7,603 nt of DNA from the IMG/VR virus record IMGVR_UViG_2713896777_000003. The stretch is one strand, 5' to 3'. Position numbers: made by a program. Origin of the DNA: a virus. Its lineage: Duplodnaviria; Heunggongvirae; Uroviricota; Caudoviricetes. Positions 6,001 through 7,603 of this stretch are shown in pieces (position 1 is the first letter of the stretch; every line of letters begins with the position of its first letter).

Positions 6001-7603
6001 CAAAATGGTAAAGTCGCTCTGTGTGATAAACGGAGGCACTAATGAGTAATGAACTACTACGCTGGCGAAAAGAGGCTTCTAGTGAGGAATGGAAGCGACT
6101 CGCCGCATTAGCGAATACTTCAGTTGGCTATCTTGATCAGATTGTATATGGGTTTCGAAGAGCTTCCCCAGATAAAGCGAATGCAATCGAAGAAGCCACT
6201 CGTAATTTCACGGGTTATAAACCTGTGAAAAAGGAAAATCTGGTGTTCGTATCGCGTAGAGCATCAGCAGCATAAGTAACCCCGCTCTTTGTAACAACGG
6301 ACATTCGTCCTACGTCGCTGAAAAGCGAGTTCCAAGATATCTGACCAACTAAGGCCATATGCGTTTCCACGCATACCTTTCAACTAGCTATTCACTATTG
6401 GAAATCTTAAGAAATGGAACAAACAAGTTACAGCAAACTATCACAGCGTGATGTTGATCGCGCAGAAACAGATTTACTTATCAACCTGTCAACGCTTACC
6501 CAGCGCGGTCTGGCAAAGATGATTGGCTGTCATGAATCGAAGNNNNNNNNNNNNNNNNNNNNNNNNNNNNNNNNNNNNNNNNNNNNNNNNNNGAGATTTA
6601 TTGCTTCGGTCTTGTGTGCTTTCGGAATGGCATCAGACATCAGTCCGATTAGCAGAGCTTTTAAGTATGCGCTTGATGGACTCACCAATAAAAAACGCCC
6701 GGTGTGCAAGACCGAGCGTTCTGAACAAATCCAGATGGAATTCTGAGGGAATTACTGGATCAATCCACAGGAGTCATTATGACAAATACAGCAAAAATAC
6801 TCAACTTCGGCAGAGGTAACTTTGCCGAACAGGAGCGTAATGTGGCAGATCTCGATGATGGTTACGCCAGACTATCAAATATGCTGCTTGAGGCCTATTC
6901 AGGCGCAGATCTGACCAAGCGACAGTTTAAAGTGCTGCTTGCCATTCTGCGTAAAACCTATGGGTGGAATAAACCAATGGACAGAATCACCGATTCTCAA
7001 CTTAGCGAGATTACAAAGTTACCTGTCAAACGGTGCAATGAAGCCAAGTTAGAACTCGTCAGAATGAATATTATCAAGCAGCAAGGCGGCATGTTTGGAC
7101 CAAATAAAAACATCTCAGAATGGTGCATCCCTCAAAACGAGGGAGGTTCCCCTAAAATGAGGGACATCCCTCAAAACGAGGGAAAATCCCCTAAAACGAG
7201 GGATAAAACATCCCTCAAATTAGGGGATTGCTATCCCTCAAAACAGGGGGACACAAAAGACACTATTACAAAAGAAAAAAGAAAAGATTATTCGTCCGAG
7301 AATTCTGGCGAATCCTCTGACCAGCCAGAAAACGATCTTTCTGTGGTTAAACCGGATGCTGCAATTCAGAGCGGCAGCAAGTGGGGAACAGCAGAAGACC
7401 TGACCGCCGCAGAGTGGATGTTTGACATGGTGAAGACCATCGCACCATCAGCCAGAAAACCGAATTTTGCAGGGTGGGCTAACGATATCCGCCTGATGCG
7501 TGAACGTGACGGACGTAACCACCGCGATATGTGTGTGCTTTTCCGCTGGGCCTGCCAGGACAACTTCTGGTCCGGTAACGTGCTGAGTCCGGCCAAACTC
7601 CGC

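Follow-up and report, generated by a model that had tools for sequence, protein, structure and literature searches.

A probable Stx-phage-type, six-iteron form of the lambda origin within gene O of a lambdoid prophage early region

The early region of a lambdoid phage occupies the window considered here, by which we mean the whole analyzed stretch of 7,603 nucleotides from IMG/VR virus record IMGVR_UViG_2713896777_000003. The genes flanking the replication origin are those expected of such a region: an ERF recombinase gene (772-1407, minus strand), sieB (3151-3690, plus strand), N (3714-4058, minus strand), a cI-like repressor gene of the S24-peptidase type (5224-5928, minus strand), an open reading frame in the cro position (6042-6275, plus strand), cII (6414-6746, plus strand), and O. 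The immunity region around the origin is of the type seen in H-19B and the O26-O111 prophages and not of the 933W type. A run of 50 N at 6543-6592 lies inside cII, where it stands for 17 bases (ATAAGCAGAACGGACTG) of the near-identical prophage in Escherichia coli strain H19. The 110-aa cII product with an apparent insertion was considered as a variant and set aside as an artefact of this run, the true length being 99 aa. Elsewhere in the window, a 286-aa open reading frame with no Pfam match (1927-2787, minus strand) carries a degenerate array of 14 GCTTCT hexamers at 2300-2383. In the corresponding region of strain H19, the annotation gives a "TolA" pseudogene interrupted by a stop within it.

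Gene O, which encodes the replication initiator, lies downstream of cII on the plus strand. Its ATG is at 6779, and the frame reads through without a stop to 7603, where the window ends, leaving 825 nt of its 5' part available for analysis. The full-length gene in relatives has 939 nt and encodes 312 aa. It is annotated in both 933W and strain H19, and P follows O in 933W, strain H19, and strain 03_3013; in the matching prophage of strain H19, the 312-aa O is succeeded by P and ren. The Pfam domain Phage_rep_O (PF04492) covers residues 22-115 of the O reading frame in the window with an E value of 5e-36 and ends just before the repeats described below, which occupy codons 117-158. When the O sequence was searched against solved structures, no PDB chain matched at E<=0.01. 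The start codon of O is spanned by ACTGGATCAATCCACAGGAGTCATTATGACAAA at 6754-6786, which fits a conserved 33-bp block of lambdoid phages that marks the pO promoter and the 5' end of the antisense oop RNA (PMC3349717). An Rfam scan of the whole window gave no structured RNAs at gathering thresholds.

Within O, the interval 7127-7250 holds six 18-bp O-binding iterons, where lambda has four in the homologous position. All six lie on the plus strand, and their start-to-start spacings are 20, 19, 20, 24, and 23 bp. The first (7127-7144) is the farthest from the AT-rich tract and is homologous to the site annotated as "ori iteron 1" in 933W. The second (7147-7164), called iteron 1' in the literature and "ori iteron 2" in 933W, is a diverged copy of lambda iteron 2 with T in place of C at 7158. 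Alignment with lambda equates the third (7166-7183) with lambda iteron 1, the fourth (7186-7203) with lambda iteron 2, and the sixth (7233-7250) with lambda iteron 4. The fifth (7210-7227), iteron 3* of the literature, is lambda iteron 3 with a single substitution, the window having A at 7222 where lambda has G. The window iterons are thus identical or nearly identical to the four annotated in lambda, and six sites match the trait of the lambda origin family, namely imperfectly palindromic iterons of about 18-19 bp with the consensus ATCCCTCAAAACGAGGGA. A degenerate pattern, TCCCYYMAAWNDRGGGA, matches the plus strand at all six sites against a chance expectation of 0.01 from 200 shuffles, and it also matches the near-palindromic fifth iteron on the minus strand. 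Directly to the right of the last iteron lies the AT-rich origin tract (7251-7290, plus strand), which has 68-75% A+T in 40-bp windows and the same bases as lambda throughout. This tract is the presumed unwinding region, a role that comes from the lambda literature, including PMC7466680.

The excess over lambda amounts to exactly one iteron pair. Tandem Repeats Finder reports a 39-bp period with 2.0 copies, 89% matches, and a score of 128 at 7126-7203, an interval that covers the first four iterons. The first copy, unit A (7126-7164, plus strand), is the block missing in lambda and duplicates unit B (7165-7203) in frame. The two units are identical at 35 of 39 positions; the four differences are the spacer at 7145-7147 (GGT in unit A, AAA in unit B) and position 7158 (T in unit A, C in unit B). 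Across 7060-7330, the alignment with lambda pairs 232 bases and contains one 39-bp gap and two substitutions, where the window has A at 7222, within the fifth iteron, and C at 7297. Since iterons 1 and 3 have the same sequence, that gap could just as well be placed one unit further right, an ambiguity also pointed out in PMC7466680. Footprinting favours an arrangement in which the first iteron is a member of the extra pair. Lambda otherwise shares with the window the position of the origin inside O, the iteron consensus, the AT-rich tract, and the flanking O coding sequence.

Because the origin sits inside O, the extra unit also makes the O linker 13 residues longer. Codons 117-129 (7127-7165) encode IPQNEGGSPKMRD, after which the lambda-like IPQNEGKSPKTRD resumes. 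The initial annotation had described an O very close to that of lambda, with six iterons produced by duplication of a pair and an added linker peptide, and each of these points held up. The count of six was borne out by the site listing, Tandem Repeats Finder, the shuffles, and the lambda alignment. The window O departs from lambda O only by G17E and the 13-residue insertion over the 275 visible residues, which is one change in 262 shared residues, and the insertion falls right after Phage_rep_O. The full-length proteins have 299 aa in lambda, with its four iterons (ITN1-4), and 312 aa in the six-iteron form.

Tandem repeats are a classic place for assembly errors, and the source sequence is imperfect, with the 50-N run lying about 535 bp upstream of the iterons. 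It might therefore be supposed that the repeat was expanded during assembly and that the true sequence is lambda-like with four iterons. Any read spans both of the 39-bp units, however, and the units are distinguished by their four differences. The complete chromosome of strain H19 agrees with the window at every base of 6593-7603, and the same arrangement recurs in the independently sequenced 933W, H-19B, and BP-4795 as well as in roughly 361 complete E. coli records. The identity to a complete genome and the recurrence in hundreds of records rule out misassembly of the six-iteron block for practical purposes, and we give this explanation a negligible probability.

Comparison with phages carrying Shiga toxin genes (Stx phages) places the origin among known ones. 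In a three-way alignment, 933W is identical to the window at every base of 7060-7330, including the iteron block and the AT-rich tract. In the GenBank record of 933W (AF125520), the features named "ori iteron 1" to "ori iteron 6" coincide exactly with the six sites in the window (window position being the L001 coordinate plus 6479), whereas the RefSeq record of lambda has only four "ori iteron" binding sites. The order of iterons also matches the Stx-phage type, 1, 1', 1'', 2, 3*, and 4, including the A in iteron 3*. At the protein level, the 13-residue insertion and G17E are shared with O of 933W and the Stx phages, and the sole difference from 933W O is residue 37, which is Ile in 933W and in P27 but Leu in the window, as in lambda. 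The substitutions Gly17Glu and Leu37Ile have been reported for O of P27 and 933W, and the window has Glu17 but Leu37, a comparison with reported differences and not with a formal definition of the family. Over the 824-nt O segment, identity is 100% to the Stx1a-converting phage 11KH263 and 99.2-99.5% to H-19B, BP-4795, P27, 933W, Stx2 phage I, and dozens of Stx1a phages. Judged by its sequence, the window origin appears to be the known Stx-type six-iteron origin, in the same arrangement as in H-19B, BP-4795, P27, VT1-Sakai, and many Stx1a and Stx2a phages. The initial annotation had implied that six iterons were unusual, and that part does not survive the reference alignment and the 933W annotation, in which a close relative has the same six-iteron layout; 933W, H-19B, BP-4795, P27, and many others carry it. 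The feature is already known, annotated in GenBank, and biochemically characterized, and it is ordinary for lambdoid phages of the Stx type.

The frequency of the six-iteron form was estimated with a 211-bp origin probe. Six-iteron records give a single alignment of 211 bp at 99.5-100% identity, whereas four-iteron records (lambda, 434, 21, HK140, and SfI) give two separate alignments that together span 172 bp, 39 fewer than the probe, at about 96-98%. Taking at least 99% identity to the 211-bp probe as a proxy, the six-iteron form accounts for about 73 of the 142 phage records that match and, among complete E. coli genomes, for about 361 of the 1,340 matching records. For the window as a whole, prophages of O26:H11, O111:H11, and related STEC chromosomes are 99.5% identical over 99% of its length. 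A megablast search of 50,697 phage genomes gave no record covering more than 65% of the window, while 68 complete E. coli genomes cover at least 80% of it, the best of them 99%. The early-region mosaic at 1-6780 is known essentially only as prophage. Taken together, the locus is almost certainly a lambda-type origin in its "Stx-phage" six-iteron form, situated in the O gene of a lambdoid prophage that belongs to the H-19B/O26-O111 STEC lineage. In the best complete-genome match (99.5%), the prophage of strain H19, the interval between Q and the holin gene carries no stx annotation, from which it follows that the six-iteron module is not confined to toxin-carrying prophages. In the same prophage (H19 chromosome 892700-906000), a gene for an LpxR-family lipid A deacylase lies between the nin region and Q.

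How such an origin would work can be outlined from lambda. Three steps are established in lambda, namely the assembly of the O-some, the opening of the AT-rich tract, and the loading of DnaB by P, and we infer them here from near-identity. O dimers would bind each imperfectly palindromic iteron through their N-terminal domain and bend the DNA, and the iteron-bound O would assemble into an O-some that, when the DNA is supercoiled, destabilizes the AT-rich tract beside it (about 7251-7290), after which P would bring the host DnaB helicase. The iterons at 7166-7250, the four that border the AT-rich tract and correspond to lambda iterons 1-4, would form the strongly occupied core, and the distal two (7127-7164) would be an old in-frame duplication of the pair of iterons 1 and 2.

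The six-iteron origin itself has been studied in vitro and on plasmids (PMC7466680; Front Mol Biosci 2020). That paper describes origins of Stx phages with six iterons (1, 1', 1'', 2, 3*, and 4) as opposed to the four of lambda and an O protein that gains 13 residues in Stx phages, a comparison it credits to Nejman et al. 2009. It cites Nejman 2009 and 2011, and its methods are gel shift, DMS footprinting, and iteron mutagenesis. With the P27/933W origin, whose sequence is identical to that of the window, O binds each iteron and the element supports replication (PMC7466680). DMS footprints of the whole origin show efficient protection only at the four iterons adjoining the AT-rich tract; iteron 1 is weakly protected, and iteron 1' is, together with iteron 4, the weakest binder (PMC7466680). 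The Stx-type O binds iterons less than lambda O does, even on a four-iteron template (PMC7466680). The expectation in the initial annotation that iteron number would affect O-some assembly finds backing here, as altered formation of the O-origin complex was observed with this same origin sequence (PMC7466680).

Although the distal pair would bind O weakly, it is reported to be necessary for plasmid replication: mutation of iteron 1 or 1' lowered plasmid establishment from about 5x10^4 to fewer than 10 transformants per microgram (PMC7466680). This strict need is surprising because lambda manages with less, three iterons supporting normal growth and two being enough in vitro (work of others cited in PMC7466680). 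The authors of PMC7466680 propose that the distal pair boosts the local concentration of O or stabilizes the O-some, which would compensate for the lower iteron affinity of the Stx-type O. The helper role of the distal pair is accordingly a published hypothesis, and one that is only partly secured. The paper states that the O protein sequence is unaltered in its iteron mutants (PMC7466680), and we translated the printed primers against the window reading frame. The iteron-1 mutant (C7129T and G7141A in window positions) is truly silent in O. The iteron-1' mutant (C7150T and G7162T) changes codon 128 from AGG to AGT and therefore Arg128 to Ser. If the primer table is accurate, the iteron-1' arm of the experiment may confound effects of the DNA site with effects of the protein.

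These data also bear on whether the added peptide, and not the added DNA, is what matters. The 13 linker residues could alter the spacing or flexibility between the origin-binding and P-binding domains of O, with the extra DNA sites incidental. The insertion (residues 117-129) does follow directly on the Phage_rep_O domain, and the weaker binding of the Stx-type O extends to the four-iteron template (PMC7466680). Secondary-structure analysis in the same paper nevertheless puts the insert outside the DNA-contacting part, and the weaker binding could equally stem from G17E or L37I. The silent iteron-1 mutation, moreover, has its phenotype with the protein unchanged. An effect of the protein with incidental DNA sites is very improbable.

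Iteron number varies further than the comparison of lambda with the Stx phages would indicate. A scan of IMG/VR for the junction of unit A with a second unit A found one contig with eight iterons, IMGVR_UViG_2695420596_000008 (L005 10126-10287). The same eight-iteron block, uninterrupted and 100% identical, is present on the chromosome of E. coli 03_3013 (NZ_CP074958.1; L006 947-1108). Relative to the window, this allele has unit A twice, with the same iteron sequences and the same in-frame 39-bp step, and O is intact at 325 aa in 03_3013. The cro-like and cII protein accessions of the 03_3013 prophage are the same as those of the H19 prophage that matches the window, which assigns both to the same lineage. 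The allele is rare, having a full-length match in 1 of 5,426 complete genomes, and the literature searched yielded no mention of eight iterons in lambdoid phages. Iteron number thus varies as 4, 6, or 8 in steps of 39 bp, or 13 codons. At 10324-10352 of the IMG/VR contig (L005), O stops inside the AT-rich tract and TGAACCGCCCCGGGAATCCTGGAGACTAA follows to the end of the contig. This last stretch resembles the terminal repeat of an IS3-family element, which may have inserted into the origin.

A repeat that changes length in frame invites the view that its copy number is neutral, the product of slippage in a 39-bp unit within the flexible linker of O, with no real part in initiation. The alleles of four, six, and eight iterons are all in frame and give O proteins of 299, 312, and 325 aa. 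The published work supplies further grounds, as the distal iterons are barely protected in footprints and two or three iterons suffice for lambda (the latter cited in PMC7466680), and the possible R128S change would weaken the iteron-1' result. Against this stands the silent two-base change in iteron 1 (C7129T and G7141A), which abolished plasmid establishment (PMC7466680). Among the matches listed, unit A occurs with its four differences throughout the six-iteron probe matches. The corresponding undiverged duplication, unit B followed by unit B, was absent from IMG/VR, which points to long and stable inheritance of the six-iteron allele and not to frequent slippage; the rarity of the eight-iteron allele likewise argues against neutrality. 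We consider neutral variation unlikely. For the locus across its population, as distinct from the window itself, the lambda-type iteron block could be a repeat of variable copy number (4, 6, or 8) that tunes O-some stability or replication control together with its cognate O variant, with an eight-iteron allele that is apparently undescribed and a six-iteron form found not only in toxin-carrying prophages. We put this broader proposal forward tentatively, as a possibility to which we assign a low probability in its entirety.

The by-products of this analysis are only mildly new and consist of the rare eight-iteron allele and an iteron mutant, published as "silent", that may carry a coding change. 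The six-iteron layout itself belongs to the established picture of Stx prophage replication. Once induced, Stx prophages multiply their toxin genes by replicating, and for this reason the origin has been studied as a possible target.
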